Assembly (NCBI GenBank): GCA_024402695.1 | Contig: JAKSTG010000015.1 | Coordinates: 4,142-68,141, forward strand | DNA from: Treponema sp. | GTDB taxonomy: Bacteria > Spirochaetota > Spirochaetia > Treponematales > Treponemataceae | Length of the DNA stretch: 64,000 nucleotides | Reading direction: 5' to 3' | In this document: in pieces, positions 11,193-52,749 of the stretch | How positions within the stretch are numbered: position 1 is the first letter of the stretch | How the letters are laid out: each line of letters begins with the position of its first letter | Notes under the pieces: generated by a model | Told to the model about the DNA's origin: nothing | What the model saw: the letters and a program-made list of their open reading frames with translations, nothing else | Databases searched by the model: none | Position numbers and translations under genes: made by a program

Positions 11193-12497
11193 ATGAAAAA
11201 ATGTTTGTTTATCTTTGCAATGCTTCTGATGGCTGGTTTTGCCTTTGCAGAAGAACTTACAGTAACTGTAGAACAGGCTGTTGAACTGGCCATGCAGAAT
11301 AATATTCAGGTAAAGCAGGCCGGAAGAACTCTTGCTTCTGCTGAACGTGCCAATAAGAATTCATGGAATTCAGTAAGTCCGAGTCTGAGTGCAAATGTTC
11401 AGATGCAGATTCCACTTATGGAAAAACAGAGAGAAATGGATGTGAATTATTCTGTTTCAATTTCTGGTTCTGCCAGCTTAAGATTACATCCTTCTTTATA
11501 TTCAAGTATAAAAGGGGCAAAACTTCAGCTGGAACAGGGACAGATTACTTATGAAGATGCCCTGCGCTCAGTTGAGCTGAATGTAAGAAAGATCTTTTAC
11601 AGCCTGATTCTTTCGGAACAGACAATTGAAACTCAGAAACGCAGTGTGGAAGCGGCAAAACGTCAGTATGAAACAAATCTTGCAAAATACAATCGTGGTC
11701 AGCTTTCGGAACTGGACCTTTTTTCAAGCCAAGTAAACTACGAATCAAAAATGCCTGCTGTTGAAAGTCAGGAAAATCAGCTGGTAAACAGCATGGAAAG
11801 TTTTAAGCAGCTCCTTGGCGTAAACCGTGATGTAAAACTGAATCTTAAGGGAAGTCTTGAAGGCTTTGAAAAATTCGACGAAGAAAAGGTTCAGATAAAT
11901 CTTTCAAATTCTTCGGCTATTAAAAAAATTGAAAAGCAGATTGAAGCCGCAGAAAATCAGCTTCTGGCAACAAGGTTTTCAGCCTGGGGCCCAAGTTTAA
12001 GTGCAAGTTATCAGGTTGGCGTTGGAAATGCTATGGGAAATACTTCTGGTGCAATGGCAACAGGAAGAAAGAATATTGAACTTTCCAGTCATGCCATCTC
12101 TCTTGGTGTTTCCATTCCACTGGACGGCTACCTTCCATGGACAACAGGTCCAATGAACATTGCTAACCAGAAAGACAGTCTTGAAACACTTAAGGAAAGT
12201 CTTGAAGCTCAGAAAAGAACAACTCAGCTTTCTATAGAAAACAGTCTTCGTACAATCCGTCAGGCCCAGAGCCAGATGAAGAGTCTTGAAGGAACTGTGG
12301 CTTTAGCACAGAAAACTTATGATCTTACACAGAATGCATATAATCAGGGATCCCGGGATCTGAACTCTCTTCGCAATGCAGAAGACAGTCTCATTTCGGC
12401 AAAAACACAGCTCCAGAGTCAGAACTATACTTTAGTAAATGCAATTCTGGAACTTGAAAATACACTGGGAGTTCCTTTCGGCACATTAAGTAAATAG
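11193..12497 (+). CDS. TolC-family outer membrane protein
   Basis: Signal peptide followed by two OEP repeats (LTVEQAVELAMQNN...). It is the first gene of an RND efflux operon. Confidence 0.9.
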   Translation: MKKCLFIFAMLLMAGFAFAEELTVTVEQAVELAMQNNIQVKQAGRTLASAERANKNSWNSVSPSLSANVQMQIPLMEKQREMDVNYSVSISGSASLRLHPSLYSSIKGAKLQLEQGQITYEDALRSVELNVRKIFYSLILSEQTIETQKRSVEAAKRQYETNLAKYNRGQLSELDLFSSQVNYESKMPAVESQENQLVNSMESFKQLLGVNRDVKLNLKGSLEGFEKFDEEKVQINLSNSSAIKKIEKQIEAAENQLLATRFSAWGPSLSASYQVGVGNAMGNTSGAMATGRKNIELSSHAISLGVSIPLDGYLPWTTGPMNIANQKDSLETLKESLEAQKRTTQLSIENSLRTIRQAQSQMKSLEGTVALAQKTYDLTQNAYNQGSRDLNSLRNAEDSLISAKTQLQSQNYTLVNAILELENTLGVPFGTLSK

Positions 12498-18322: not shown

Positions 18323-18411
18323 GAGGGGGCTGTCCCCTTTGACGGATATTGCAGAGGGGACAGACCCCTTTGTTTTATGACGTTACAATGCAGAGGGGAC
18401 AGACCCATTTG
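18323..18411. repeat. REP-like cluster 1 (3 copies)
   Basis: 18323-18341 is GAGGGGGCTGTCCCCTTTG (variant). 18352-18372 is CAGAGGGGACAGACCCCTTTG (F). 18391-18411 is CAGAGGGGACAGACCCATTTG (F variant). Confidence 0.9.
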
Positions 18412-18445: not shown

Positions 18446-21400
18446 ATGTTCTTTATGAGAAAAGTTTATTTTGTTTTATCATGGTTAATTTTGTTTTCAT
18501 CGTTATTTTGTATTTCTTCATGCAAAAAAGAAGTCGAAAATAACCAGCAGGCTGTTGAAGCTCCAGCTCCATCTACAAAATCGGAAGATCCGGAATATAT
18601 TGAAAATGCCGAATATGTGAATTCCATTGCCGGAATAGAAGGTTTGGAATTCGTTACTCTCGGAAAAGTTTCTGAAGGCGCATTTGGGCTAGATTATACT
18701 CCTCTTGTTCCTGAGCCTCAGAAAGAAGCAGGAAAAATTAATATGTCGGCAGGGACATCCAGCGGAAGCGGTGCTGGTCTTCCTGACGAATCTGTTATTC
18801 CAGGTTTAAGAAAACTGGAAGATTATAAAACTCTTTACTATAAAGAAAAGCTTGTCCTTTCAAATAAAGCAAATCCTGCGGAATCAGAAAAACTTGATCC
18901 GTCAAAAGCTCCTAAAGAACCTTTTACTGTTACAGATTGGGGCCCACAGGGAAAACTTCCTGCAGATGTAAGATGTCCTTCTTTTTATGTTCTCTTTTCA
19001 GAACCTGTAGTTCCTCTTAAGGCTTTGGACGCACCTGCTTCGGAAAATGAATTCATGAAGATTACACCTCCGTTGAAAGGTGTGTTCCGCTGGTATGGTT
19101 CAAGCCTTCTGAGTTTTGATGCAACAGAACCTGCAAATCCTCTTGAAACTTATACAATTACCCTGTCGGATAAAACAACTTCTCTTTACGGAAAGAAACT
19201 TACAGGCGATAAATCTTTTTCAACTGAAGCTGAATCTTTGAAAGTTGATGTATTCTATCCGGGAGAAAATTTTTCTCGCCAGAATCATATTTGGTTCGAC
19301 AATGATGATGTTCCTTTCGAAGCTGCAAAGGAATGTAAGGTCAGATTTAACTATGCAGTAAAAGCAAATGATATTCAGAAGCTTTCTACTGTTTCGGTTT
19401 ATGGAAAGAACAGATCCTTCTCTGTGGAACAGGTGACAGATGATTCTGTTCTGTACAAGATTGATTTCCCTTCAGAAAAAATTGATGACGGAAAAGTTGA
19501 AATTGAAATAAAGCAGCCGGGATCTGATAAATATCCTATGAGAGTGCTTTACTATACACTTCAGCCTTTCGCTGCAAAGAGCTGCAAGGAAGGAGATACT
19601 TACGGCAATAAATCAAATCCTGTATTCATCAGATTTTCTCATCAGGTGGATGAGAACTCTGTTCTTGGAAATCTGGTTCTGTCTCCTGAACTGCCAGTCA
19701 CAAAGGACAATATCAGCGTTCAGGGAATGTCTATTGAACTTTACAATCTTCCTGTTGAATTCGGAAAGAGTTATAGAATTGAACTTAAAGACGGAATAAA
19801 GGATATTTACGGACGTAAACTTTATGCAGGAAATGCATTCTCCTTTACAATTCCAGAAGCTGCAAGCACTGTGAATTTCAATAATTCCGGAATAAAAATC
19901 CTTGAAGCAAAGTTCCCTCACAAAATGGTATTTGATTACCAGAATGTTCGCGATGGTTCAACCTATACTTTGGCAAGAACAAAGACTCCTTTGAGCTACA
20001 AGAAGACTGCAATCCTGGACGGAAGTGAAATTGTGAAGGCTCTGGATACAGAGACAAGAAACCAGAGACTTCTTGAAGTTGTAGAAATGGATCCTCTTCT
20101 TGAAAATGGAAAGGGATGGGTTTCTTTTGATTCAGAAGTAAGACTCTGGAACCGTTACAGAAATACAGAATATAAAGATTACAATCATACTACTGTTCAG
20201 GTAACTGACCTTGGTGTAACTGTCCGCTATGGAATTAACAAGGTAGTAGCTTTTGTTACAAGACTGAGCGACGGAACTCCAGTGAAGGATGCAGAGGTTT
20301 ACTGGTACGAAGGATATAACAATACTTTTGATCCGGACCAGATAAAAGAATTTGCCTCAGCCCATGGAACTACAGGAGAGAATGGTCTTGCTGTTATTCC
20401 TACTGATACGAAAGTAACTTATTCAAATCCTTGTGTTCTTGTAACGACAGAAGATGATGCCGTTACTTTTTCTCCATCTGGACACAGCCCTTGGAGAAAC
20501 GGAATTTATAACACCGGTTCATACAGAAATGCGGCAACTTCGGAAGCCGTTACTTTCATGTTTAGCGACAGAGGTCTTTATAAACCGAGCGAAACAGTTT
20601 CCTTCCGCGGAATTGAAAGAAATCTTAATTTGGGAAGATATTTCCCATGGACAGGTTCTTATATAATTGAACTTAAAGAAGACAAATGGTACAGACCTAA
20701 GGTGATTTCAACACTTACTGGAAGAACTTCAAGTTCCGGCGGATTCTCGGGTAAATTTGAGATTCCTTCAGACCTGGAACCTGGAAACTATAAAATTGCC
20801 TTCAGACGCCAGGATGTAAATGCTGAGCGCAGCATCACAATCAATGTTGCTTATTTCGAAAGACTTAAGTTCCAGTCATCGATTGCTATTCCAAAAGTTC
20901 CTGTAACAGCAGGAGATACTCTTCAGGGAACTCTGAGTGCCTCTTACCTGGCTGGGGGAGCTCTTTCGGGAGCTTCATATTCTTCTTCATGGATTCGTGA
21001 ACCATGGTATTTCACATCAGATGATTCGGAACTGAAGAACTTCAGATTCGGTCCTATAGATTCAAACGGCGGAAGAAATTACATAAGTGATGATTCCGGA
21101 GTTCTTTCGGCCAATGGTGAAGCCAAGCTTTCTGTAACTGCAGAAGCGGGAGAACTTAAAGGCGTTCCTTACAGATACAGAGTTTCTGCAGAAGTTACTG
21201 ATGTTTCGAATATGAGTATTTCTGCTCAGGCTTCCGCTGTTGTTCATCCTGCTTTGTATTATCTTGGACTTGCAAAAGGTGCCGGAACAAAAGGCTGGGC
21301 AAAAGCCGGACAGAAACAGGACTTCATCTTCAAGATGGCTGATCTGGAAGGAGTTGCTGTAAAACGTGCAGAAAATCCAGACAAGCTTGTAAAAAATCTT

Positions 21401-24400
21401 ACGGGCGAAAACAATGTTCTTAAAGTAACTTTGAGCCGCGATGTATGGAACCTTGTAAAACAGAATGGTGTATACGGCGGTATTTATACCCGTTATGAAA
21501 AAACAACTGAAGTTGAAGAAACAAAGAAAGTTTATATTGCTGCCGAAGGAAAGGTTTCTGTAACTCCTTCAAAGGTCGGCTACTATACTCTTACTGTGGA
21601 AGGAAGCGATGCAAAGGGAAGACCTGTTCTTTCAGAAATCCGTTTCTTTGCTACCGGTAAAGGAAACTATCTTTGGAACCAGGAAGACGCAACTTCAATC
21701 AGACTGACTCCTGACAAAAATAAATATAATCCTGGAGAAATGGCTCATATCCTTATGGAAAGTACTCTTCCTAGCGGTGACTATCTTGTTACTGTTGAAC
21801 GCGAAGGAATCTTTACAGAAGAGATAAAACATTTTGATGACGGAATTTCAGTTCTGGATATTCCTGTTGCCAGAGGTTATGTACCTGTAGTTTATGTATC
21901 CGTTTCTTCTTACTCAGTTCGTGCCGGTGAACCTGTTCATAAATACGGCGAAGTGGACCTTGATAAACCAAAAGGTTATTACGGAGTAACAGAACTTTTT
22001 GTTGATCCTTACGTTAAGGCCTTCAGCATTGACGTTAAGTCTGCAAAGACTGCATATCGTCCTGGAGAAGAAGCCTCTGTTACACTTACTGCTACTCGTG
22101 GTGGGGAACCGCTGGCAAATGCAGAGATTACTCTTATGGCAGTTGACCGTGGTGTTCTTGATCTGATTGATTACCATGTTCCGAACCCAATCGACTTCTT
22201 CTACAACCATAACAAATTCCCGCTTCGCGTATACGGAGGCGACAGCCGTCAGTATCTTATGGACCCTGTAACTTATGAAGTTAAGAATCTTCAGGGTGGT
22301 GACGAGGGCGATGATAAGCTTCAGGAAAGAAGTGATTTCAATCCTACAGCTGTATTTATTCCAGTTTTGATGACAGATGAAAATGGACAGGTAACTGCCA
22401 ATTTCAAACTGCCAGACACTTTAACCACTTACCGTGTAACTGCCTTCGGTGTTTACGGTGATATGCTGGCACTGAGAGAAGATGAAATCGGTGTAAGAAA
22501 TCCTGTAAATGTTCAGCAGGTTCTTCCTAGAAGACTCCGTGAAAGAGATACTTCAGAAGTAGGGGTTCTTCTTACAAACCTGGACGGAGTTCCTCACGAG
22601 ATGACAGTAAGTCTTGAAATGAAGACTCCTGAAAAGAAAGACATTGTCGTTAAGAACGGAGTGGCGGGAGTTCCGGGAAAAGCCTTTGTGGATGGACCTG
22701 CTTCTCATAAAGTCACTGTTCAGCCTGGACAGAATATCACAGTTTACTTTGATGCTTCTGCAACAAAGGCAGGTATTGTAAACGCAGTATTTGAGATTAC
22801 AAGTGATATTGTAAATGAAAGACTGGTATGTCCTTTGACGATTGAAAAGCCATATCTGTACGAAACCTTTACTTCTATGGGAACTCTTACAGAAGACGAA
22901 AAATCGGGAAATGAAGGAATCATAATTCCTGAGTCTGTAGATAATATGGGGTCTCTTACAGTAACTTTGGATGCAACAAGACTTGGAACTCTTGCTGAAT
23001 CAGTAAACTATGTTTTCGGATATCCATACGGATGTCTTGAACAGCAGAGCGCAAAGGTTCTTCCTCTGATTATTTTTGAAGATTACATCGATGTCTTCGG
23101 ACTCGAAAAAGATGCTTCGATCAAGAATGTGAGAGAACTGGTTAAATCTTATCTTAAAGATTGGAGCAGATCTCAGCTGGGTAACGGAGGCTTCCCTTAC
23201 TGGCCGAGCGAAACAAGATATGATTCCTTCTTCGTTTCTTTAAGAATTGCAAACATCTGTGCTCTTGCAAAGGAAAGAGGTTATACCAATTCAGAAATCT
23301 CAATAAACGTTTCTCTTCTTTTGAATTATCTTGAAAAGTACATAAAGAAGAATGAACGTTATGTTTCTGATCTTGATAAGGCCTATTATAACTATATTCG
23401 TGCAATGTTCGAAATGCCTGTTTCAAAATCCGTTCTTGAAGGACAGCTGGCCGCAAGCAAAGATGTTTCAGTAACTGCACTTACCGGTCTGACTGCAATC
23501 AAGATTCCAAGCATGGAATCGGAACTGGCAGAAAAATGCCGCACAAATATCAGAAGCTTCATGAGGCCTGGAACCCGTGGTGTGGATATTTCGCAGAACG
23601 GTTCAGGTTACAGCTGGTGGTACAACACTGATTCTGACCGTAAGGCTCTGGCACTTCAGTTCCTTGTTCAGATGAATAAAGATGATGAAATAGTAACACG
23701 CCTTATCTGGTCTCTGCTTCAGGAACAGAAAGCTGGTTACTGGGCTAGTACTGCAACAACAGCAAGAGTTCTGGAATCAATGTATACGGTAATTAAGGTT
23801 TCAGATCTTGATAATTTGAATCAGAAAGCAACTGCAAGAATAAACGGAGCAGAACTTGCCGCCGGAACTTTTGCAGGTCCTGCAGCAAAACCTGTTACCC
23901 AGGTTATTCCGTTGAAAGATCCAAGACTTTCTGAACTGCCAAAAGATAAGCTTTGTTCAATTGATTTTGAAAAAGAAGGGAACGGAAGTCTTTATTACAC
24001 AACAAGTCTGAAGTACGCAATTCCGTATGAAAATCAGGCAATGCGAGATGAAGGGCTTTCTTTGACCATGACTGTAACTGATGTCCTGACAGGTGAAGAA
24101 ATAAAACCTGAAGGAAACTCAACTCTGATGGAACTTGAAAATGGACGGGTTTATCAGGTGAAGATTAATCTTTCTTCAACTCGTGACAGAACCTTTATTG
24201 CAGTCCGTGCTCCGGTTCCTTCAGGCGCTGAAATCCTTGATGCAACTTTCGTTACAAGTCCAGACGACAGTTATTCTGGAAGTGACTATAACGAGAATAA
24301 CCGTTATGACTGGGGCCGCTGGATGAGTAACCAGAATATTATGGATAATGAAGTTCAGTATTTCTGGGATCAGTTCAGAAAAGGAAGTACAACAGCAACC

Positions 24401-24517
24401 TTTAAGTTCCGTGCCGTTCGTCGCGGGGTATTCCCGGTTCCTCCTGTAACAGGAGAATGTATGTACGAACCTGAAGTATTTGGTCGTACCAGCGGACTTC
24501 TTTATACAATAAAATAA
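18446..24517 (+). CDS. alpha-2-macroglobulin family lipoprotein with thioester site
   Basis: The 2023-aa protein has the lipobox LFCISSC and repeated MG-type domains. The thioester motif is GYPYGCLEQQ. It is followed directly by pbpC, as in the E. coli yfhM-pbpC pair. Confidence 0.92.
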   Translation: MFFMRKVYFVLSWLILFSSLFCISSCKKEVENNQQAVEAPAPSTKSEDPEYIENAEYVNSIAGIEGLEFVTLGKVSEGAFGLDYTPLVPEPQKEAGKINMSAGTSSGSGAGLPDESVIPGLRKLEDYKTLYYKEKLVLSNKANPAESEKLDPSKAPKEPFTVTDWGPQGKLPADVRCPSFYVLFSEPVVPLKALDAPASENEFMKITPPLKGVFRWYGSSLLSFDATEPANPLETYTITLSDKTTSLYGKKLTGDKSFSTEAESLKVDVFYPGENFSRQNHIWFDNDDVPFEAAKECKVRFNYAVKANDIQKLSTVSVYGKNRSFSVEQVTDDSVLYKIDFPSEKIDDGKVEIEIKQPGSDKYPMRVLYYTLQPFAAKSCKEGDTYGNKSNPVFIRFSHQVDENSVLGNLVLSPELPVTKDNISVQGMSIELYNLPVEFGKSYRIELKDGIKDIYGRKLYAGNAFSFTIPEAASTVNFNNSGIKILEAKFPHKMVFDYQNVRDGSTYTLARTKTPLSYKKTAILDGSEIVKALDTETRNQRLLEVVEMDPLLENGKGWVSFDSEVRLWNRYRNTEYKDYNHTTVQVTDLGVTVRYGINKVVAFVTRLSDGTPVKDAEVYWYEGYNNTFDPDQIKEFASAHGTTGENGLAVIPTDTKVTYSNPCVLVTTEDDAVTFSPSGHSPWRNGIYNTGSYRNAATSEAVTFMFSDRGLYKPSETVSFRGIERNLNLGRYFPWTGSYIIELKEDKWYRPKVISTLTGRTSSSGGFSGKFEIPSDLEPGNYKIAFRRQDVNAERSITINVAYFERLKFQSSIAIPKVPVTAGDTLQGTLSASYLAGGALSGASYSSSWIREPWYFTSDDSELKNFRFGPIDSNGGRNYISDDSGVLSANGEAKLSVTAEAGELKGVPYRYRVSAEVTDVSNMSISAQASAVVHPALYYLGLAKGAGTKGWAKAGQKQDFIFKMADLEGVAVKRAENPDKLVKNLTGENNVLKVTLSRDVWNLVKQNGVYGGIYTRYEKTTEVEETKKVYIAAEGKVSVTPSKVGYYTLTVEGSDAKGRPVLSEIRFFATGKGNYLWNQEDATSIRLTPDKNKYNPGEMAHILMESTLPSGDYLVTVEREGIFTEEIKHFDDGISVLDIPVARGYVPVVYVSVSSYSVRAGEPVHKYGEVDLDKPKGYYGVTELFVDPYVKAFSIDVKSAKTAYRPGEEASVTLTATRGGEPLANAEITLMAVDRGVLDLIDYHVPNPIDFFYNHNKFPLRVYGGDSRQYLMDPVTYEVKNLQGGDEGDDKLQERSDFNPTAVFIPVLMTDENGQVTANFKLPDTLTTYRVTAFGVYGDMLALREDEIGVRNPVNVQQVLPRRLRERDTSEVGVLLTNLDGVPHEMTVSLEMKTPEKKDIVVKNGVAGVPGKAFVDGPASHKVTVQPGQNITVYFDASATKAGIVNAVFEITSDIVNERLVCPLTIEKPYLYETFTSMGTLTEDEKSGNEGIIIPESVDNMGSLTVTLDATRLGTLAESVNYVFGYPYGCLEQQSAKVLPLIIFEDYIDVFGLEKDASIKNVRELVKSYLKDWSRSQLGNGGFPYWPSETRYDSFFVSLRIANICALAKERGYTNSEISINVSLLLNYLEKYIKKNERYVSDLDKAYYNYIRAMFEMPVSKSVLEGQLAASKDVSVTALTGLTAIKIPSMESELAEKCRTNIRSFMRPGTRGVDISQNGSGYSWWYNTDSDRKALALQFLVQMNKDDEIVTRLIWSLLQEQKAGYWASTATTARVLESMYTVIKVSDLDNLNQKATARINGAELAAGTFAGPAAKPVTQVIPLKDPRLSELPKDKLCSIDFEKEGNGSLYYTTSLKYAIPYENQAMRDEGLSLTMTVTDVLTGEEIKPEGNSTLMELENGRVYQVKINLSSTRDRTFIAVRAPVPSGAEILDATFVTSPDDSYSGSDYNENNRYDWGRWMSNQNIMDNEVQYFWDQFRKGSTTATFKFRAVRRGVFPVPPVTGECMYEPEVFGRTSGLLYTIK

Positions 24518-37715: not shown

Positions 37716-38642
37716 ATGATTATTCTTGAAACAATTATCCCGGTTTTCGTATTGATTTTTCTGGGATTCATTTTGAAACGTTCAGGTCTTTTGAAGGACG
37801 AAGGCATCGCTGTAATCAAAAAACTTTGCTGCAATGTATTTCTTCCTGTAATGGCTTTTGACTGTCTTATTCACGGAAGCTATTCTAGAGATTCTCTGCT
37901 TCTTATTGGACTTGAGCTTTTCATGCTTTTTGCCGCTTTCGGAATTGGATTTCTTTTCAAGCCCTTATTTGATGAAAAGGTTCGCGGTTATGTTCCTTAT
38001 GCCATGACTACTTATGAAGGCGGACTTTTCGGCTGGGCCCTTATTACCATTGCTGTAGGTAAAGAAAATCTTTTCTATATTGTCAGCATGGATATTTTCT
38101 CGGGAGTCTTTGTGTTTACCATCATGGCAACTGGACTGAAGATGCTTTCCGGCCAGCAGATGACAAAAAAAGAAATCATCAAATCGATCTGTCTGAATCC
38201 TGTAAACATTTCTGTTGTGCTGGGATTTTTGGGAGCAGCTTTCGGATTGGGCGATTTAATAGACAAATCTAACTTCAGCAGTGTTTATACAAAGCTCACA
38301 GATTTCTTTATTCAGCCAATGTCACCGATGATTTTGCTTTGCATCGGTTCAGGACTTGTCTTTGACTGGGCAGTTCTTAAGAAAGGATTAAAACTTGCAG
38401 GTCTCCGTTACGGACTTCAGGTTGTGCTTTGTGTTATTGTCCTTTTTGTTATTTACAAAACAATCGGTTTGAACCCGGTTCTTAAAAAATCTCTTCTGAT
38501 TTATTTCTTTGTTCCTACATCCTTCCTGCTTTCCATGTATGCAGAAGAAAAGGAATCAGTTGAGTTTACGTCGTCAGTATTGTCACTTGAAATCCTTATT
38601 TCACTGATTATTTATACTATTATTACTATTTTTGTTGCATAG
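37716..38642 (+). CDS. AEC-family (auxin efflux carrier-like) membrane transporter
   Basis: The 308-aa protein has about 10 TM helices and starts MIILETIIPVFVLIFLGF, typical of this family. The TAG stop (38640-38642) overlaps the first REP copy. Confidence 0.8.
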   Translation: MIILETIIPVFVLIFLGFILKRSGLLKDEGIAVIKKLCCNVFLPVMAFDCLIHGSYSRDSLLLIGLELFMLFAAFGIGFLFKPLFDEKVRGYVPYAMTTYEGGLFGWALITIAVGKENLFYIVSMDIFSGVFVFTIMATGLKMLSGQQMTKKEIIKSICLNPVNISVVLGFLGAAFGLGDLIDKSNFSSVYTKLTDFFIQPMSPMILLCIGSGLVFDWAVLKKGLKLAGLRYGLQVVLCVIVLFVIYKTIGLNPVLKKSLLIYFFVPTSFLLSMYAEEKESVEFTSSVLSLEILISLIIYTIITIFVA

Positions 38643-38679
38643 GGGTCTGTCCCCTCTGCACAGGGGTCTGTCCCCTATG
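38641..38679. repeat. REP-like cluster 2 (2 tandem copies, R orientation)
   Basis: 38641-38658 is AGGGGTCTGTCCCCTCTG. 38662-38679 is AGGGGTCTGTCCCCTATG. The period is 21 bp. Confidence 0.9.
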
Positions 38680-38687
38680 GAGTTAAA

Positions 38688-39461
38688 ATGAAAAACAAAC
38701 AGAGAAACGAACTTGCAGTATGCGGAATGTCTGCAGTAAAAAAACTTGAAAAGAAGCACAGCGATAGAATTCAGCGTCTTTACTTTACAGAAAAGAATGC
38801 ACCTCTTTTCGGAGGGCTTTGCAAGACTCTTGCAAAGAACAAAAGACCTTACAATATGGTGAAGGATGAGAAAGAACTGGAAAAACTGGCAGGTACAGTC
38901 CATCATCAGGGGGTTGTAGCCATGATCGATTTCCCTGAACTTACGCAGATTGATTCAGATATTATCCAGAATTGGGTTGAAAACAAGGAAGATGCTGTTT
39001 TTTTGGATCATATCGGAAATGCCAACAACTTTGGCGCCATCGTTCGTTCTGCGGTTTTCTTCGGAATCAAGAACATTATTATCCCTATGGATGAGGGACA
39101 GACCTTCATTACTACCAGTTCTTACCGAGTTGCGGAAGGGGGAATGGAATATGTGAATATTTACACTGTCGCCAATCCTGAAAAACTGCTGGCAGCTCTT
39201 AACGGAAAGATGTGCAAGATCGGGACATCACTTAAGGCTAAGAAAGATGTGAGTCAGATCAGAAAATCCGCAGGGGACAGACCCCTCCTTGTTATTTTGG
39301 GAAATGAAGAACATGGAATCAGCCGTGAAGTGGAAAAACTCTGTGACGAACTGGTGATTATTCCTTTTAGCGGTATGTCAGAAGGTTTCAAAGAACCTCT
39401 TGTAGAATCTCTCAACGTGGCTCAGGCCGCTTCGGTGATTTTCTATGAGATTATGAAATAG
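38688..39461 (+). CDS. TrmH/SpoU-family RNA 2'-O-methyltransferase
   Basis: SpoU substrate-binding N-terminus and the SpoU motifs NNFGAIVRSA, LVILGNEEHGIS and SLNVAQAASVIFYE. Confidence 0.9.
   Translation: MKNKQRNELAVCGMSAVKKLEKKHSDRIQRLYFTEKNAPLFGGLCKTLAKNKRPYNMVKDEKELEKLAGTVHHQGVVAMIDFPELTQIDSDIIQNWVENKEDAVFLDHIGNANNFGAIVRSAVFFGIKNIIIPMDEGQTFITTSSYRVAEGGMEYVNIYTVANPEKLLAALNGKMCKIGTSLKAKKDVSQIRKSAGDRPLLVILGNEEHGISREVEKLCDELVIIPFSGMSEGFKEPLVESLNVAQAASVIFYEIMK
39271..39288 (+). repeat. REP-like unit inside the TrmH-like CDS
   Basis: CAGGGGACAGACCCCTCC contains 15 consecutive nt identical to the repeat consensus (AGGGGACAGACCCCT). Here it is read as A-G-D-R-P-L. Confidence 0.7.
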
Positions 39462-40032: not shown

Positions 40033-40053
40033 TTTAACATTGAAGGCGGTGGA

Positions 40054-40161
40054 AGGGGGCAGATTGAAAAAGGGGACAGACCCCTTGGAAATACATTTCA
40101 ATGGGGACAGCCCCCTTGCGCTTTGATAACCGAGGGAAAAAATAGGGGTCTGTCCCCTCTG
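40054..40161. repeat. REP-like cluster 3 (3 copies plus one degenerate)
   Basis: 40067-40086 is AAAAGGGGACAGACCCCTT (F). 40101-40118 is ATGGGGACAGCCCCCTT (F variant). 40143-40161 is TAGGGGTCTGTCCCCTCTG (R). There is a degenerate AAGGGGGCAGAT at 40054. Confidence 0.9.
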
Positions 40162-40192
40162 TCATCCCTCATTTTTATGGTAAAATAGAGGT

Positions 40193-41548
40193 ATGCTTCG
40201 AAATTCCGGACATGCTGATCTTCCTCTTCATACAGGTGTGGTGCCAAAATGGCTGGCAGACCGCATGATGGTTACTGGAACACTCATAATCGAATCTATT
40301 ATCCGGAATTATGGAGTAGATGAGGCTTTGACCAGGCTCAGCGATCCGTTATGGTTTCAGAGTTTTGGTGCGGTCATGGGAATGGACTGGCACAGTTCCG
40401 GCATTACCACCAGCGTCATGTATGCGTTGAAACGGGGATTAAATCCAAGGGCTGAAGAGCTGGGACTTTACGTTTGCGGCGGAAGAGGCCGCTATTCCCG
40501 CCAGACTCCGGATGAACTTCTAGAATATGGGGAACGGACTGGGATTAATGGGGATGAGTTTGTCCGCGACTCAAACCTGGTGGCTAAAATAGACAATAAT
40601 GCGGTGCAGGACGGATTTCAGCTTTATCAGCATAATTTTATCCTTTCAAATACGGGAAACTGGGCTGTCGTTCAGCAGGGAATGAACGGGACTACACGAA
40701 CGGCCCGTCGTTATCACTGGTGTTCTTCAGATTTACGTTCATTCATAGAAGAACCTCATAAAGGCGTTGTAGGAAACAATCAGGGACTTATTCTGAATCT
40801 TACAGACAAGGGCGCTGATAAAACCCGCGGAAGCATTCTTGAACTGAGTTGCGAAGATCCGGAACGGATCCTTAAAGAAATTGGCGTCATGGCAAAGCCA
40901 GAAAATGAGATTATTCTTTTAAGTGGCGGGAAATCTGTCCCTATTAAGAAAAAATCGGCACTGGCACCGATTCCGGGACAGGGAGAACTTTTCCCTGAGC
41001 TGGCTTCTATGCCTCCAACTGAAGTTGAAAAAATCCCTGGACCGGGAGATAAAATGGTCGTTGTTCAGAACAAGGGGCGCAACATTGTCATGCCTGCCCA
41101 TCATGAGGTTCTTGCACAGGATGTGGATTTGAAGCGGCTTGGCGGAGTTCTTGCCACCGCCTATGAAACTCAGCCTAAGGATTTTGAAAGTCTTATGCTT
41201 ACTCCGGGGCTCGGTCCGCGTACTCTTCAAAGTCTGACTCTTGTAAGTGAAGTTATTTATGGAACTCCAAGCCGTTTTACGGATCCAGCCAGGTTCAGTT
41301 TTGCCCATGGTGGCAAGGACGGACATCCTTTCCCTGTGCCTCTTAAAGTTTATGATGAGTCGATTCGGGTTCTTCAGGACAGTATCGAGAAATCAAAACT
41401 CGGATATAACGAAAAATCAGACTGTTTGCGTCGACTTCACAACACTGCGATGTATGTTGAACAGAACTGTCAGCCGGAAGTTGATTTCGAAAAGGCCATT
41501 CTTTACGAAAAAGGCATGTCTGACACCTGGGACGGCAGAACCTGTTAG
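40193..41548 (+). CDS. DUF763 domain protein
   Basis: The N-terminus ADLPLHTGVVPKWL...MDWHSSGITTSV matches my recollection of the DUF763 family. The function is unknown. Confidence 0.75.
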   Translation: MLRNSGHADLPLHTGVVPKWLADRMMVTGTLIIESIIRNYGVDEALTRLSDPLWFQSFGAVMGMDWHSSGITTSVMYALKRGLNPRAEELGLYVCGGRGRYSRQTPDELLEYGERTGINGDEFVRDSNLVAKIDNNAVQDGFQLYQHNFILSNTGNWAVVQQGMNGTTRTARRYHWCSSDLRSFIEEPHKGVVGNNQGLILNLTDKGADKTRGSILELSCEDPERILKEIGVMAKPENEIILLSGGKSVPIKKKSALAPIPGQGELFPELASMPPTEVEKIPGPGDKMVVVQNKGRNIVMPAHHEVLAQDVDLKRLGGVLATAYETQPKDFESLMLTPGLGPRTLQSLTLVSEVIYGTPSRFTDPARFSFAHGGKDGHPFPVPLKVYDESIRVLQDSIEKSKLGYNEKSDCLRRLHNTAMYVEQNCQPEVDFEKAILYEKGMSDTWDGRTC

Positions 41549-41670
41549 TTTTTACACTATTTCTTCAATTTAATTGTGATTTAAACAACCTGTTTTTACT
41601 ATTCAACAGGCCGAATTTTAGGTAAAATATCTTAGTTAAAATCTTTAAATTTCTAAAAGGAGTTCTTTTT

Positions 41671-45365: not shown

Positions 45366-45415
45366 AAGGGGTCTGTCCCCTCTGTTATAACAGTAACAGA
45401 GGGGACAGACCCCTT
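45366..45415 (+). terminator. inverted REP pair forming the intrinsic terminator of the TRAP operon
   Basis: AAGGGGTCTGTCCCCTCTGTTA, loop TAACAG, then TAACAGAGGGGACAGACCCCTT followed by a 6-T run. This gives a perfect 22-bp stem built from one R copy and one F copy. Confidence 0.8.
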
Positions 45416-45508
45416 TTTTTGATGTTTATCGGCCTTTTTCTTTTTGCTCTTCTTTTATTAAAGTTTTGTAACATTGATTTCTTAATAGATCGGTTATGAC
45501 AGTTCTTT

Positions 45509-46258
45509 TTAAGCTTTTGAGATTATTGTTCTAGGAAAACCGGTTATTCTACTGATTTGAGAGATTGAGAAGTGATGTTCTTTTAGGAGATGAAGCTGCG
45601 TTATTTGTTCATTTAAGGGAAAGGTTTTTATTATATTTAGGTTTGTTATGTTAAGTAAATTTTGAATAATTAGTTTTGCTCTGTCATCGCTATAAAATGG
45701 TTTATTTTCATATTCCATATATTCTTGCTTATCATAAGCGTTAAGAAACGTATAAATTGCATTTTTACTTCCAAATATGGAATAAAGAAAGTCTGTTTTT
45801 ATTGTTACGGGATTGTTTGCTTGTGTCAGTTCTTTGTAACTGCTCCATATATAATCCTGCATATTGCAGATTTTTGCTTTTTCTGGATTCTTGAGAATAT
45901 AACGTAATACATTTTTCAGATAAATTTCATCTTCTACAGGTTCACTTTTGAACCTTCCCTGGAAAAGATGCCCACTGCAATCATATTTATGATTAAAAAA
46001 ATATACATAGCTGTTTGCCAGTTTCTGAACAAACAGGCTGAGGTCTTTTTTGGGTGTGTTCCCGAGCAAAATATGCACATGGTTTTGCATGAGACAATAG
46101 GCGTAGATGTGAATTTCAAGCTGATTTGCATACTTACGTATCCGGTTAATGAAAAAATGCCGGTCAGCATCATCATAGAAAATCGATTGTTTGTTATTGC
46201 CCCGCATGATTATATGATAGATCTGCGATCTTGCTTCTTTTCTGGGTTTTCTAGCCAT
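45509..46258 (-). CDS. IS200/Y1 HUH transposase-like protein (RAYT-like, COG1943) with a C-terminal HTH
   Basis: HUH motif in YAYCLMQNHVHILLG, catalytic Tyr region VLRYILKNPEKAKI, and GHLFQGRFKS between them. The C-terminal SISQISRITGFPRTIISKA resembles a DnaA-C-type HTH. Confidence 0.85.
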   Translation of the reverse strand: MARKPRKEARSQIYHIIMRGNNKQSIFYDDADRHFFINRIRKYANQLEIHIYAYCLMQNHVHILLGNTPKKDLSLFVQKLANSYVYFFNHKYDCSGHLFQGRFKSEPVEDEIYLKNVLRYILKNPEKAKICNMQDYIWSSYKELTQANNPVTIKTDFLYSIFGSKNAIYTFLNAYDKQEYMEYENKPFYSDDRAKLIIQNLLNITNLNIIKTFPLNEQITQLHLLKEHHFSISQISRITGFPRTIISKA

Positions 46259-46334
46259 ATTATTCCTTGATTATAGAATTGCTCAAAATTTACAAAAAAG
46301 GAAAAAGTGTGCGGAAAAAAGAGGGGAATCATTA

Positions 46335-46350
46335 AAAAGGGGACAGACCT
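46335..46350. repeat. degenerate REP-like copy upstream of the RAYT gene
   Basis: AAAAGGGGACAGACCT, in F orientation, with the 3' half of the palindrome eroded. Confidence 0.6.
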
Positions 46351-46438
46351 ATCTTTTACATCGTTCAGATTTCCTTGACGATTTTACTACTTGGACTTAA
46401 AATATATTGAAGTTCTAAAGTGGGGTTTCATTTTTTCC

Positions 46439-46969
46439 ATGAACAGTTCGACCTTGAATAATCAGATAATCAACAGGCTTTTAACAAGCTTTAAGTCCTA
46501 CTACAATATTATTCCATTTGATGGGGAACCATATCTTGTAGCTCGCTGTGATTATTTTGAAAAATCAGAACGATTCATGGTATCCAAAAAAGCGAATCTC
46601 TGGAGTGCTAATGCAGAAGAGTTTATTTATCTTTTCTATGCACCGGAACTTACAGAACAAATCTATGATGAATGCATGAAATATGTAGCAGAAGCATGGC
46701 CAAAAGAAGCCCATATTGGACCTGACCACATGTACACATATGTTACCCCAATTTTTGTGTGCGATTCTTATGAAAAAGCTGTTGCAAAGAAAATAAAAAA
46801 GTGCAGAATCTACAAATCATTCAAATTTTCTTTTCATGGATGGATGGAATACCATACAGCCTTAGTATGCTTTAAGGCTGAGGATGAGCGAAAAAATTGG
46901 ACATTGCTCAGTAATTCCCGTGGCAACTGTGTAAAGAAAATGATTTTGAAAGTGCTGGATATAAAATAG
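46439..46969 (+). CDS. hypothetical protein
   Basis: The ORF is open from 46391 (TTG). The first ATG is at 46439. There is no good SD at either site, and no family was recognised. The gene lies between REP copies in an AT-rich stretch. Confidence 0.55.
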   Translation: MNSSTLNNQIINRLLTSFKSYYNIIPFDGEPYLVARCDYFEKSERFMVSKKANLWSANAEEFIYLFYAPELTEQIYDECMKYVAEAWPKEAHIGPDHMYTYVTPIFVCDSYEKAVAKKIKKCRIYKSFKFSFHGWMEYHTALVCFKAEDERKNWTLLSNSRGNCVKKMILKVLDIK

Positions 46970-47022
46970 GCACATGCAGTCTGCGTTGCAGACTTCAATA
47001 TACTGGGATTTCTTAATTTAGA

Positions 47023-47041
47023 TAGGGGTCTGTCCCCTCTG
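47023..47041. repeat. REP-like copy (R) just upstream of cstA
   Basis: TAGGGGTCTGTCCCCTCTG, 28 nt before the cstA ATG. Confidence 0.9.
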
Positions 47042-48853: not shown

Positions 48854-48947
48854 CAGAGGGGACAGCCCCCTAAGAGAAATAAAACCAGAAAACTAGGAGT
48901 CTGTCCCCTCTGACTTGCTTTCTTTATGTAGGGGTCTGTCCCCCTTT
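48854..48947. repeat. REP-like cluster 4 (3 copies)
   Basis: 48854-48872 is CAGAGGGGACAGCCCCCT (F variant). 48894-48912 is TAGGAGTCTGTCCCCTCTG (R variant). 48929-48947 is TAGGGGTCTGTCCCCCTTT (R). Confidence 0.9.
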
Positions 48948-49038: not shown

Positions 49039-50046
49039 ATGAAGAGAAATGTATCAGGTGTAGTGGCAGCCTTAAGTGCCGCTTTGATCGTGTTTTCTGG
49101 GTGTTCCGGAAGAGAAAAAAATGAAGTGCTTCACGTTTATTCCATTATTCATGAAGAAGAAACAGAGGCACTTTGCAATTTGTTTACAGAAAAAACAGGA
49201 ATAAAGGTTGAGTTCCTTCGCGCCACAACGGGTGAACTGGTGAACCGTGTTATTTCAGAGAAAAGTGCTCCGCAGGCTGATATTCTTCTTGGTGGGGCTT
49301 CAAATTATCACATCAATCTTGCAAAAGAAGGATGTCTGGAACCTTATGCATCGTCTCTTGCAAAAGACCTTCCAGAATATGCAAAAAGTTCAGATGATAC
49401 CTGGACCGGATTCTGCGTACTGACCCTCGGAATCGGAATCAACAAGGCCCGCTTTGAAGAAAAGTTCCCGGGTGTTGAATATCCAAAAACTTGGGAAGAT
49501 CTTGTAAATCCAGCATTTAAGGATGAAATCGTAATGACTAATCCAGTTGCATCAAGCACAGCTTATCTTTTTGTTCAGAATCAGCTTCAGCGCCTTGGAT
49601 GGGATGCAGGATGGGACTATCTTTCAGATCTTTCCCAGCTGGTAGGCCAGTTTCCTGATTCAGGTTCGGCACCTCCAAAATTGATCGGAACCGGGGAATA
49701 TGCCTTGGGAGTGGCTTATCTTCATGCTCTTTCAAAATATAATGCACAGGGATTTGACATTCAGCTGGTGGCTCCCAAAGATTCTGTAGGGGATGTTGAT
49801 TGTGTTTCAATCATGAAAAACTGCGGAAATCTTAAGGGCGCTCAGAAGTTTGTTGATTTCATTCTTTCTGCTGAAGCCGAAACTTTGATGTCATCAATTG
49901 ATTTTACAATTCCTGTAAACAGCGAAGCCAAGGCTCCAGCTGGTGCGATTCCTGTTTCAGAAATCAGCCTTATTGATTACGATGCAAAAAAAGCAAGTTC
50001 AGAAAAGGATTCTGTAATCGCAAAATGGACAGAACTGGTAAAATAG
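49039..50046 (+). CDS. ABC transporter substrate-binding lipoprotein (Fe3+/AfuA-FbpA-like class)
   Basis: Lipobox VFSGC and a periplasmic binding fold of the iron(III)/thiamine type (LHVYS...EFLRATTGEL). Confidence 0.8.
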   Translation: MKRNVSGVVAALSAALIVFSGCSGREKNEVLHVYSIIHEEETEALCNLFTEKTGIKVEFLRATTGELVNRVISEKSAPQADILLGGASNYHINLAKEGCLEPYASSLAKDLPEYAKSSDDTWTGFCVLTLGIGINKARFEEKFPGVEYPKTWEDLVNPAFKDEIVMTNPVASSTAYLFVQNQLQRLGWDAGWDYLSDLSQLVGQFPDSGSAPPKLIGTGEYALGVAYLHALSKYNAQGFDIQLVAPKDSVGDVDCVSIMKNCGNLKGAQKFVDFILSAEAETLMSSIDFTIPVNSEAKAPAGAIPVSEISLIDYDAKKASSEKDSVIAKWTELVK

Positions 50047-51692
50047 AAAAAAAGAAAACCGCGTTTTTTCCTGCTGTAACTGTACTCTGGAGCTGCGCGG
50101 TACTTTTTCTTGCAGTATTTATTCTTTTTCCTCTTGTCTGCGTCTTTGCAAAAATCAGGCTTTCAGACCTGGCAGAGATTTTTACTGCTGTCAGATTCAG
50201 AAAAACAATTCTGAATACTGTCCTTGAATGTATCTGTTCAACAACTCTTTCTGTTCTGACAGGCTATATCTATGCTTACGCCGTAACCTTCGGTCGTCTG
50301 CCTTTCAGGAAGTTTTTTTCATTTATCCCTGTGCTTCATCTGATTACACCTCCTTTCGTAGGTGGTTTGGCTTTCATTCTTCTTCTTGGAAGACAGGGCC
50401 TCATCACAAAGACAATTCTTCACCTTGATGTTTCTTTATATGGATTTCCAGGTCTGCTTATTGCCCAGACTCTTTGTTTCTTTCCCCTGGCGTATCTGAT
50501 GTGCAAGGAAAGTTTTGAGGCTCTTAACCGAAATCTTGTTGACGGGGCAGTAAGTCTTGGGGCTTCCAAACTGAAGATATTTTTCCGCGTGATTTTTCCC
50601 CTTACGTTTCCAACTCTGCTTTCGAGCTTCCTTTTTATAGCAGTTTCAGTCTTAAGTGATTTCGGAAACCCTATGATCGTAGGCGGAAGATTCAAGGTTC
50701 TGGCTGTAGAAATCTATACTCAGCTTACAGGGTGGATGAATGCAGGAACTTCTGCCGCCCTTGGACTGGTTCTTCTGATTCCATCCCTTGGTCTGTTTTT
50801 CCTCCAGAACAGGCTTTTCAAAAAACAGTCAAAGAAGACTGCCATTCTTGGGGGAAAAGGCAGTGCCGTAAAAAACGGAGGAAATTCTTCTTCTGAACCG
50901 GTTTTCAGAAATTCTGTTTTTGCAGATATTCTTCTTTTTTTGTTCGTGACCTTCATAGCTCTGGCCGTTCTTCTTCAATTTGTTTCCATTATTGCTGGAA
51001 GTTTCCAGAAACTTTGGGGAATAGATACCACCTTTACTTTTGAGCATGTCAAAAAAACATTCAGATATGGAAAAGAATTCCGGAATTCAGTTCTCTTTGC
51101 ACTTTCGGCTTCTACTTTGTCTGCGTTGATTTCTCTTTTTGTCTCTTTCTGTGTGCACAGAACAGGCTCCGGAAGACTTGTCGGGAAGAGTTTTGTTGAT
51201 TCCCTTATCCAGCTTCCTTCTGCAATTCCGGGGTCACTTTTTGGACTTGCTTTTTCCATTACCGCCAATATGCTGCATATAAAGGCGCCGCGTTTTCTTA
51301 TATGTATGGTCATCACTGTGGCTTTCATGCCTTTTTCGTACCGTATTGTAACTTCGACTTTTTCGCAGATCCGACAGACTCTCGATGAAGGGGGACAGAC
51401 CCTTGGGGCCGGATTCATGAAAATTCTTGGAAGAATACTTGTTCCTTTATCAAAAGGCGGTATCATGTCCGGCTGGACCTACAACTTCGCAAGGGGAGTA
51501 GGAACCTTAAGTTCCGTGATATTCCTTGTAAGCTTCAATACACCTTTATGCTCTGTCCGTATCCTGAATCTGGCGGAGCAGGGGGACTGGGGACGGGCAG
51601 CCGCCATGGCTGTAGAACTGACCTTAATCACTTTTGCTATTATTCTTGGAGGAAACCTGATTTTTAGGAAGAGAGGAGATTCAAATGAATGA
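50025..51692 (+). CDS. ABC transporter permease, duplicated (FbpB/AfuB-like)
   Basis: The 555-aa protein has two MetI-like halves, each with an EAA-type loop. Confidence 0.85.
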   Translation: MDRTGKIEKKKTAFFPAVTVLWSCAVLFLAVFILFPLVCVFAKIRLSDLAEIFTAVRFRKTILNTVLECICSTTLSVLTGYIYAYAVTFGRLPFRKFFSFIPVLHLITPPFVGGLAFILLLGRQGLITKTILHLDVSLYGFPGLLIAQTLCFFPLAYLMCKESFEALNRNLVDGAVSLGASKLKIFFRVIFPLTFPTLLSSFLFIAVSVLSDFGNPMIVGGRFKVLAVEIYTQLTGWMNAGTSAALGLVLLIPSLGLFFLQNRLFKKQSKKTAILGGKGSAVKNGGNSSSEPVFRNSVFADILLFLFVTFIALAVLLQFVSIIAGSFQKLWGIDTTFTFEHVKKTFRYGKEFRNSVLFALSASTLSALISLFVSFCVHRTGSGRLVGKSFVDSLIQLPSAIPGSLFGLAFSITANMLHIKAPRFLICMVITVAFMPFSYRIVTSTFSQIRQTLDEGGQTLGAGFMKILGRILVPLSKGGIMSGWTYNFARGVGTLSSVIFLVSFNTPLCSVRILNLAEQGDWGRAAAMAVELTLITFAIILGGNLIFRKRGDSNE

Positions 51693-52749
51693 AGAAATAC
51701 TGAAACTTGAAGACATATCTTTTTCTTATGGAAAAAACGCGATTTTGAAATCTTTTTCTCTGTCTGTTGAAAAAGGATCTTTCACAACTCTTCTTGGTCC
51801 GTCAGGCTGTGGAAAAACAACTCTTTTAAGGCTTGTTGCAGGGTTTCTGAAGCCTGATGAAGGACGTATTCTCATAAACGGAAGGGATGTGTCGGATGTT
51901 CCTGTAGAAGAAAGACGGATTGGCTTTGTTTTTCAGGATTATGCCTTGTTTCCTCATATGACTGTAAAGGAAAATCTGCTTTTTGGATTCAGTCATAAGG
52001 AAAAGAAGTCCCAGCTTTCCCGTGTGGAGGAGATTTCTGCCTCTCTTGAACTTTATGAGCTTCTGGAAAGATATCCACATGAGCTTTCCGGAGGTCAGCA
52101 GCAACGTGTCGCTCTTGGCCGCACTCTCATGATGAAACCTGAAATCATCCTTATGGATGAACCTTTGTCATCTCTTGATGCGAAACTACGGCTTAAGGTT
52201 CGGGAAGAGCTTCAGGAAATACAGAGAAACATCGGAATCACCACAATTTATGTTACTCATGACCAGGAAGAAGCCCTTTCGCTTTCCTCAAAAATAGCTG
52301 TAATGAATGAAGGAAAGCTCCTTCAGCATGATACTCCGGAAAACGTTTATTTCAATCCTTCTGATAAAGAGACTGCTGAGCTTACAGGACAGGCAAACTT
52401 CCTCAAAATGGGCGGAAAACTGGTTATGGTTCGCCCTGAATGGTTTTCTGTGGATACGGAACTGGAAAAAGATAGCCAGAACAAGATCAAAGGAACTGTT
52501 GTTTCATCTTCATTTCTGGGGGCTGTCGTGCGCTACAAGCTTGAATGTGCTGAAAGCCTGAAAGGTTATGTGACTGCAGATATCCGTAAAGCAAAGGGGA
52601 CAGACCCCTCGCAATCGAAATCCCTTTCAAAGGGGACAGACCCCTCTGCCGCTAAATCCAGATCAGAGGGGACAGACCCCCTTGCATCCCTTCAACCCGG
52701 CGAAAAAGTTATTTTGACAATTGATTCTTCTGTCTGCTTTGATAATTGA
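51685..52749 (+). CDS. ABC transporter ATP-binding protein (FbpC/PotA-like) with a repeat-derived insertion in the C-terminal TOBE-like domain
   Basis: Walker A GPSGCGKTT, signature LSGGQQQR, Walker B IILMDEPLSSLD. The C-terminal domain is interrupted by KGTDPSQSKSLSKGTDPSAAKSRSEGTDPLAS. Confidence 0.9.
   Translation: MNEEILKLEDISFSYGKNAILKSFSLSVEKGSFTTLLGPSGCGKTTLLRLVAGFLKPDEGRILINGRDVSDVPVEERRIGFVFQDYALFPHMTVKENLLFGFSHKEKKSQLSRVEEISASLELYELLERYPHELSGGQQQRVALGRTLMMKPEIILMDEPLSSLDAKLRLKVREELQEIQRNIGITTIYVTHDQEEALSLSSKIAVMNEGKLLQHDTPENVYFNPSDKETAELTGQANFLKMGGKLVMVRPEWFSVDTELEKDSQNKIKGTVVSSSFLGAVVRYKLECAESLKGYVTADIRKAKGTDPSQSKSLSKGTDPSAAKSRSEGTDPLASLQPGEKVILTIDSSVCFDN
52594..52683 (+). repeat. 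REP-like cluster 5: three tandem F copies in frame inside the ATPase CDS
   Basis: The GGGGACAGACCCC cores start at 52596, 52632 and 52668, exactly 36 bp apart. Each is read as G-T-D-P. Confidence 0.9.

Follow-up and report, generated by a model that had tools for sequence, protein, structure and literature searches.

A gene of a Treponema species and a short hairpin repeat found around it very probably form a cognate pair of enzyme and DNA. The gene (positions 45509-46258, minus strand) encodes a protein of 249 amino acids, and it lies in a stretch of 64,000 nucleotides of Treponema sp. contig JAKSTG010000015.1, which we refer to as the window and whose numbering we use throughout. The protein belongs to the TIRYT clade, that is, to subclass 2.1 of the TnpA_Y1 family, and it combines a RAYT-like fold with the sequence membership of a TIRYT. 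In our judgment it is likely to be a chromosomal, single-copy nuclease-ligase of the Y1/HUH type that acts on single-stranded DNA (ssDNA), and that processes the repeat while its own gene stays fixed. We consider the pairing very probable because the association of gene and repeat recurs across dozens of relatives in several phyla.

The enzyme-plus-repeat pair is real but it has precedent, and the locus would work like a system of repetitive extragenic palindromes (REPs) and RAYT proteins. What is new is the hosts (Spirochaetota and Bacillota), the hairpin nature of the repeat and its high density, a core that is shared across phyla and surrounded by covarying outer stems, and the presence of in-frame insertions in coding genes.

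The nuclease and its family

The open reading frame is intact and starts with ATG, and Pfam Y1_Tnp (PF01797) matches residues 12-122 of the protein with 64.2 bits and an E-value of 1.6e-17. The HUH motif is found in NHVHIL (residues 59-64, HVH codons at 46073-46081), and the catalytic tyrosine Y120 in RYILKNP (residues 119-125, Y120 codon at 45899-45901). A first-pass annotation, made from the sequence alone, had described an intact minus-strand HUH/Y1 gene with these two motifs, and the description holds. An HUH motif and a single catalytic tyrosine in a Y1_Tnp fold are also common to the TnpA proteins of IS200/IS605. H60, H62 and Y120 show no variation in alignments of 27 and of 114 homologues, and their invariance in the larger set argues for retained catalysis. 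In the homologue alignments, the WSS motif of the window protein (W138-S139-S140) has an invariant W138 and an S140 that is at least 90% conserved, and Q234 and R237 of the C-terminal domain are invariant.

The profile search that the first-pass annotation had proposed, against Y1_Tnp and RAYT models, is above threshold for Y1_Tnp and below it for NCBIfam REP_Tyr_transpos (NF047646), with 58.7 bits for a cutoff of 80. NCBIfam transpos_IS200 (NF033573) reaches 29.2 bits for a cutoff of 55, and covers residues 13-81 only. We have rebuilt the TIRYT and RAYT reference proteins from Additional file 5 of PMC3733652, and compared them to the window protein using BLASTP. We observe that nine published TIRYTs match it at 87-114 bits (30-38% identity, E-values of 1e-24 to 8e-35), that the RAYTs of Pseudomonas (pfs 3939) and Stenotrophomonas (sml 2816) have at most 33 bits, and that the E. 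coli RAYT (eco b228) has no BLASTP match. The WSS of the window protein aligns with the WSS of the published TIRYTs, and by similarity the protein falls outside RAYT Groups 2 and 3.

In the literature that we searched, TIRYTs are mentioned only in two papers. Di Nocera et al. 2013 (PMC3733652) described TIRYT genes bordered by terminal inverted repeats (TIRs) that share GGGGWSAS. Quentin et al. 2018 (PMC6006769) described subclass 2.1 as long proteins with an extension similar to a helix-turn-helix (HTH) at the C-terminus, found no REP-like sequences near their genes, and equated the subclass with the TIRYTs. The C-terminal extension of TIRYTs resembles the HTH domains Bac_DnaA_C, HTH_23 or HTH_28. 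The window protein has in common with the TIRYTs an N-terminal M(A/P)RxPR...YH(V/I)xxRGN, the HUH motif, GHLxQGR(F/Y)KS, Y...NP and WSS, a serine motif placed just after the catalytic tyrosine. It also has a long C-terminal extension, which is probably HTH-like. Its locus has in common with their TIRtrons the inverted repeats with GGGGWSAS, and repeats that in some hosts are dispersed as dimers and clusters. On the other hand, the published TIRYTs come from Proteobacteria, Acidobacteria and Planctomycetes, and none from Spirochaetota or Bacillota, unlike the loci presented here; and their repeats are long TIRs, at best "moderately abundant", compared with a 13-21-nt hairpin at about 1 per 3 kb.

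The C-terminal extension of the window protein has approximately 110 residues. In an AlphaFold model using 114 sequences (predicted local distance difference test, pLDDT, 88.8; predicted template modelling score, pTM, 0.70), it ends in three confidently modelled helices, residues 215-226, 232-239 and 243-248, with a pLDDT of about 90 for the block. These last three helices bear the conserved pattern G-x-S-x-x-Q-I-S-R-I-T-G. The HTH-like domain that they form (residues 215-248, encoded at 45515-45616 on the minus strand) fits the description of subclass 2.1 (PMC6006769). Using E-values up to 10, Pfam has no HTH match on the window protein itself, and on the C-termini of homologues it has only weak, inconsistent and sub-threshold matches to HTH_7, HTH_19 and HTH_23. 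The C-terminal HTH that had been proposed from the sequence is thus backed by confident model helices, but the Pfam matches are sub-threshold and in homologues only; we regard an HTH tail as probable on the basis of the model.

In a Foldseek search of PDB, the top match of the model is 4er8_A, the structure of E. coli TnpA_REP in complex with a REP hairpin, with an E-value of 1.7e-6 and a template modelling (TM) score of 0.79 on the target over 194 columns. The structures of IS608, ISDra2 and other IS200-type TnpA proteins rank below it, with TM scores of 0.54-0.67 on the target. The fold search was needed because a sequence-profile search of PDB missed 4ER8, and reported only marginal IS200 matches (E-values of 0.35-0.68).

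An ordinary IS200/IS605 transposase is ruled out by the transpos_IS200 score, the copy number in the window, the neighbours and the ranking of folds. There is no second copy of the gene within the 64-kb window, where neither multiple identical copies with insertion sequence (IS) ends nor a tnpB partner are found, and the neighbours are a DctM-type TRAP permease, a gene of family PF26226, and CstA. A multi-copy IS200, the outcome that would have overturned the earlier proposal, is not seen in these 64 kb, and that proposal was right in reporting neither tnpB nor IS200-type ends, since same-strand hairpins at the left and right ends are also lacking. The window protein shares with IS608 and ISDra2 TnpA the HUH/Y1 fold and presumably the hairpin-guided cleavage and joining of ssDNA, unlike them it is about 100 amino acids longer. 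A classical RAYT of GTAG-tagged REPs is ruled out as well, by the NCBIfam cutoff, by BLASTP, and by the repeat consensus. The fold, and a dispersed intergenic hairpin repeat beside the gene, are those of a RAYT or TnpA_REP; GTAG and membership by sequence are not found. The first-pass designation "RAYT-like" is therefore apt in that the enzyme is an HUH/Y1 protein of RAYT type and not of IS200 type, but it is not a classical RAYT.

The hairpin repeat and its association with the gene

The repeat can be described by a 13-nt core, GGGGACAGACCCC, and by a 17-mer, AGAGGGGACAGACCCCT. Allowing up to 3 mismatches, the 17-mer has 21 matches in the 64 kb, versus 0.14 on average, and at most 2, in shuffles that preserve dinucleotides. 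By a crude gene call, in which 93% of the window is coding, the remaining 7% or so holds 15 of the 19 copies that are within 1 mismatch of the core. Some copies of this 13-21-nt unit stand alone, and others are grouped by two or three, direct or inverted, with a spacing of 21-42 nt; the density is approximately 1 per 3 kb. The Treponema consensus is CAgAGGGGACAGACCCCTntg, where GTAG is absent, and the conserved unit is minimal, CAgA-GGGG-ACAGA-CCCC-TntG.

The consensus had been taken to be previously uncatalogued, and it turns out to be partly catalogued: the first 8 bases of the core, GGGGACAG, are a perfect instance of the reported GGGGWSAS (PMC3733652, PMC6006769). In the searched literature, no paper contains the core in any of four variants, and none was found that connects Treponema with REPs, RAYTs or tyrosine transposases. 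Rfam has no match anywhere in the window.

The REP copies reported around the gene are all there. Downstream, an inverted pair (45366-45421) consists of two perfect copies of AGAGGGGACAGACCCCT, an outer arm at 45367-45383 (minus strand) and an inner arm at 45398-45414 (plus strand), the latter pointing opposite to the gene, as is canonical for the TIR on the downstream side of a TIRtron. When folded, this pair is a 23-bp hairpin with an energy of -27.3 kcal/mol and with T7 after it, and it scores as an intrinsic terminator on the plus strand; it looks like the terminator of the convergent DctM gene, and more weakly that of the nuclease gene. Upstream, a degenerate copy with 3 mismatches (46336-46352, plus strand) is found 78 nt from the start codon in a non-canonical orientation, and its orthologous copy in Treponema sp. 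UBA1747 (locus L001) is intact. Another perfect copy (47024-47040, minus strand) lies in the next spacer, which separates cstA from the PF26226-family gene, and L001 also has an orthologous copy of it. Gene and repeats are physically associated, but the bracketing by REPs that had been proposed is not clean, with a degenerate and non-canonical copy upstream, and a copy at 47024-47040 that stands beyond an unrelated conserved gene.

To look beyond the window, we scanned one genome per GTDB species, which resulted in 80 loci encoding relatives of the nuclease. Those in Treponema and other Spirochaetia have 43-76% identity to it, and those in Bacillota, Coriobacteriia, Acidobacteriota, Thermodesulfobacteriota and others have 31-50%. 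A GGGGWSAS in forward orientation occurs within 300 nt upstream of the gene in 24 of 62 loci (p-value 6e-15), and one in reverse orientation within 300 nt downstream in 21 of 66 (p-value 2e-11), compared with an expected 5.4%, which is the rate in these loci at distances beyond 1.5 kb from the gene. Both sides are found together in 16 loci.

The core itself lies beside homologues in seven Treponema loci (L001-L004, L006, L011 and L016) and in Bacillus infantis (L029), with 16 copies in L001, 15 in L002 and 38 over the 20 kb of L011. A variant, GGGGTCAGACCCC, flanks the homologues of a Lachnospiraceae metagenome-assembled genome (MAG; UBA2860, L035) and of Paraliobacillus (L039). Where the exact motif is absent from a locus, a related sequence often borders the gene in inverted orientation, such as AGGGACAGACCT in L007, L008 and L010, or palindromes such as AGGTGACAGGGGACGGTTCCCTGTCACCT bordering the gene in L017, L019, L020 and L025. 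The repeat variants track the protein clades. In a Spirochaetia MAG (CAAGIR01; L008 and L009) and in a Phycisphaerales MAG (JABGPF01; L060 and L067), two contigs of one assembly each encode a homologue, so that some genomes have more than one TIRYT gene.

In Bacillota, the core GGGGWCWGACCCC is found inside longer REP-like palindromes of 27-31 nt with outer arms that are specific to each lineage. These arms are GAGCCA and TGGCTC (5′ and 3′, respectively) in Bacillus infantis, ATGACA and TGTCAT in Lachnospiraceae, TGGGAC and GTCCCA in a first Paraliobacillus family, and TGGGGCG and CGCCCCA in a second. In a set of 43 repeat units from seven sources, where copies in one genome are related and independence is overstated, the four core pairs are invariant and all nine outer pairs have changed on both sides. 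Paired cells amount to 78.7% in this set versus 62.7% in shuffles, and the covariation score is 0.382 versus 0.147 in shuffles, none of which reaches it (0/500), and versus 0.08-0.21 in slid controls. Because at least four unrelated outer-arm sequences retain perfect complementarity, this pattern favours the read-out of a structure with a conserved apex. Paraliobacillus salinarum (L039) has two sub-families with compensatory changes in the outer arms (TGGGACATT/AATGTCCCA and TGGGGCGTT/AACGCCCCA). The element of L035 is an almost perfect palindrome, the orientation of which is set by the central base only.

A different reading of the palindromes is that the protein is a regulator or nucleoid organiser that uses its HTH to bind them in double-stranded DNA, with an HUH core that is unused for strand transfer. 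The repeats are indeed palindromic as operator sites are, the C-terminal HTH-like domain with its invariant Q234 and R237 is conserved, and the gene looks domesticated (it is single copy and syntenic, with a ratio of nonsynonymous to synonymous substitution rates, dN/dS, of 0.12). Yet none of the 114 homologues departs from the HUH histidines and the tyrosine, the outer stems vary freely and still stay complementary, which favours a structure over a duplex sequence as what is read, and repeat clusters are gained and lost, as described below. We find this reading unlikely.

Conservation of the gene and turnover of the repeats

The L001 locus is collinear with 39.3-55.7 kb of the window. Neighbouring proteins are 88-95% identical between the two, and more diverged are a DUF1850 protein (72%), the product of gene 50025-51692 (70%), the PF26226-family protein (77%), and the nuclease itself (72%). 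Compared to its syntenic orthologue, the nuclease has a dN/dS of 0.12 with a dS of about 1.5, near saturation. Synteny, the low dN/dS and the near-saturated dS together indicate that the gene has long been at this site under purifying selection. L001 also has orthologues of the repeats around the gene and of a three-copy cluster between cstA and the next gene (48855-48946; +,-,-), with orientations maintained.

These results bear on the possibility that the gene and its flanking inverted repeats are an autonomous IS that is still mobile, a "TIRtron", with the dispersed repeats as solo ends or as derivatives similar to miniature inverted-repeat transposable elements. Such an element would explain the 16 loci with both a forward copy upstream and a reverse copy downstream, the scattering of the family over many phyla, a nuclease that at 72% amino acid identity is more diverged than neighbours at 88-95%, and a GC content of the locus below that of its flanks. 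The last is as the first-pass annotation had noted in calling the interval AT-rich, with a GC of 0.29-0.37 over 45.4-46.8 kb versus 0.41-0.47 on both sides. It would not explain why there is one gene copy in 64 kb, at the same chromosomal position in two species with saturated synonymous sites, why the upstream end is degenerate in the window, or why relatives on plasmids are so few (17 of 72,556 records, all with at most 36% identity). Moreover, there are about 20 repeats for 1 gene, and the repeats are units of 13-21 nt, not deletion derivatives of the length of the gene. A mobile IS is improbable given these observations, if somewhat less so than the duplex-binding regulator.

We observe that the repeats turn over between these two related genomes; the gains and losses do not identify the enzyme responsible. 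The window has a three-copy intergenic cluster (40069-40160; +,+,-), downstream of a terminator-like hairpin, in a region (about 40050-40165, within the compared interval 40039-40172) that corresponds to 12 nt in L001 without any cluster. Reciprocally, L001 has three copies opposite window positions 41537-41621, where the window has none. The L001 homologue of gene 50025-51692 also contains an in-frame insertion, a 66-nt inverted REP pair (at 11474-11563 of the reverse complement, opposite window positions 50861-50884), which is absent from the window. Flanks are only 68-80% identical in these comparisons, too low to place insertion boundaries or the target site.

Within the window, three direct copies with a period of 36 nt (52593-52681, plus strand) are in frame inside the gene of an ABC-transporter ATPase (51685-52749, plus strand), and they are translated as KAKGTDPSQSKSLSKGTDPSAAKSRSEGTDPLAS, a 34-residue repeat of "KGTDPS" type. 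Pfam TOBE_2, which has 76 positions, is matched from 1 to 40 in the presence of the array, and from 1 to 73 once the array is deleted; the extension of the match indicates that the array is an insertion that splits the domain. Two more copies are found in genes: an exact 13-mer core at 39270-39286, within the SpoU_methylase domain of the product of gene 38688-39461 near residue 195, and, at 51388-51404 inside gene 50025-51692, a copy whose 13-nt core has 1 mismatch.

In-frame insertions in coding genes are not what one would predict if the repeats functioned as terminators. This matters for the alternative in which the repeats are regulatory hairpins of the host (terminators, stabilisers of mRNAs, or protein-binding sites) that are independent of the nuclease gene, and lie next to it by coincidence. 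It is true that the inverted pair by the gene scores as an intrinsic terminator, that several clusters are kept at orthologous sites between species, and that some adjacency is expected by chance, as about 9 of about 47 intergenic spacers hold repeats. Coincidence, however, does not account for the orientation-specific flanking of homologues across Spirochaetota, Bacillota, Acidobacteriota and others, with p-values of about 1e-11 to 1e-15, nor for loci that have hardly any copies other than those flanking the gene. Of the alternatives weighed here, this is the one we find least probable.

The remaining clusters of the window are intergenic, one with three copies at 18324-18408 (-,+,+), and one with two direct copies at 38641-38678 (minus strand). 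A very long open reading frame of 2023 amino acids (18446-24517, plus strand) starts directly downstream of the former.

Between the nuclease gene and cstA, gene 46439-46969 (plus strand) encodes a protein that has no match in our local Pfam, NCBIfam or PADLOC libraries, and that belongs to a conserved family of about 175 amino acids (precomputed PF26226). A homologue search finds relatives in Treponema, Clostridium, Lachnospiraceae and Succiniclasticum, and the family is widespread in Treponema and Clostridia. Comparison of the window with L001 indicates purifying selection on this gene. It had been proposed as a passenger, and this proposal has to be abandoned: among the related loci, a gene of this family adjoins the nuclease only in the syntenic L001, and as it is not linked to the nuclease gene in other genomes, we regard it as a conserved hypothetical neighbour outside of the element, and a role as cargo or accessory gene is ruled out. 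A role in a defence system is also set aside, as neither this protein nor the nuclease has a PADLOC match.

Proposed action of the enzyme and its meaning for the family

We propose a short hairpin, GGGG-ACAGA-CCCC, as the cognate DNA of the nuclease; in many cases it is extended to cAGA...TnTG. The protein would bind the repeat as a hairpin when the DNA is transiently single stranded, and recognise the loop together with the upper stem (GGGGWSAS). With a metal ion held by H60 and H62, it would cleave beside the hairpin by means of a 5′-phosphotyrosine link made by Y120, and the strand would be rejoined elsewhere, such that repeat units or small clusters are copied, inserted or deleted while the nuclease gene itself stays fixed. 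Inverted pairs may secondarily serve as strong hairpins. As for the HTH tail, it may keep duplex DNA close to the hairpin, or direct the enzyme to other sites. Binding, cleavage, rejoining and mobilisation of the repeat by this protein are inferred by analogy with E. coli TnpA_REP (PMC3333891, PMC3479197, PMC8266576) and with the TnpA proteins of IS608 and ISDra2.

Several observations weigh against this proposal. A single Treponema hairpin is weak as ssDNA, with 5-8 bp and -4.7 to -5.6 kcal/mol. Palindromy and covariation would also fit a dimer that binds duplex DNA using the HTH. The window has no canonically oriented copy upstream of the gene, and the copy nearest to the gene on that side is degenerate. 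The agreement between repeat variants and protein clades fits common descent of the hosts as well as it fits a cognate pair. Homologues in L013, L015 and L028 have few or no such repeats nearby, so that the presence of the gene does not predict an expansion of repeats. The single-copy status and the number of repeats rest on 64 kb of genome. Finally, we found no biochemistry on any TIRYT in the searched literature, and the binding and cleavage of hairpins are analogies.

Amongst known systems, the window resembles that of E. coli TnpA_REP and its REPs and BIMEs (PMC3333891, PMC3479197; 4ER8) in having a single-copy chromosomal HUH/Y1 gene and clusters of hairpin repeats in mixed orientations; it differs in about 85 extra C-terminal residues that include the HTH, and in a repeat without GTAG. 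As in the REPIN-RAYT systems of Pseudomonas (Bertels & Rainey; PMC3116915, PMC5581495), inverted doublets form long hairpins, and the gene is single copy, syntenic, under purifying selection and rarely found on plasmids. Unlike REPINs, many of the window units are direct repeats or singletons, and REPINs are detected by means of 16-mers, which are longer than the conserved unit of the window. The Rickettsia palindromic elements (RPEs) are also short palindromes inserted in frame in protein-coding genes. RPEs are unrelated in sequence to the window repeat, tagged by CGTC, and have no dedicated transposase (cited in PMC3733652).

A more general idea, which we hold tentatively and which falls a little short of an even chance, is that TIRYTs as a whole read the apex of a hairpin, where the upper stem and the loop bear GGGG and WSAS, and that they have seeded REP-like families in phyla for which no REP-RAYT system has been described, including Spirochaetota and Bacillota. 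If that were true, the "terminal inverted repeats" of 2013 would be hairpin REPs, and the negative result of 2018, in which subclass 2.1 genes had no REPs nearby, would reflect a detection tuned to repeats that are longer or tagged by GTAG. A nearly universal core with free outer stems would then be the most conserved recognition code between enzyme and hairpin among the Y1 nucleases.

Among domesticated transposases that maintain a population of mini-repeats in bacterial genomes, the main example is that of REP-RAYT systems, which have been characterised almost only in Proteobacteria. The results presented here tie the TIRYT branch, the second largest Y1 subclass and one reported to be without REPs, to dense hairpin repeats in gut and rumen Treponema and in several Bacillota. 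Searches for repeats using 16-mers or GTAG will miss such families. The in-frame insertions show that repeat elements reshape proteins besides intergenic DNA. For the first biochemistry on a TIRYT, the cross-phylum core GGGGWCWGACCCC is a short and concrete candidate substrate, and for the 249-residue protein of the window, the repeat sequence CAGAGGGGACAGACCCCTTTG is the predicted candidate ssDNA substrate.

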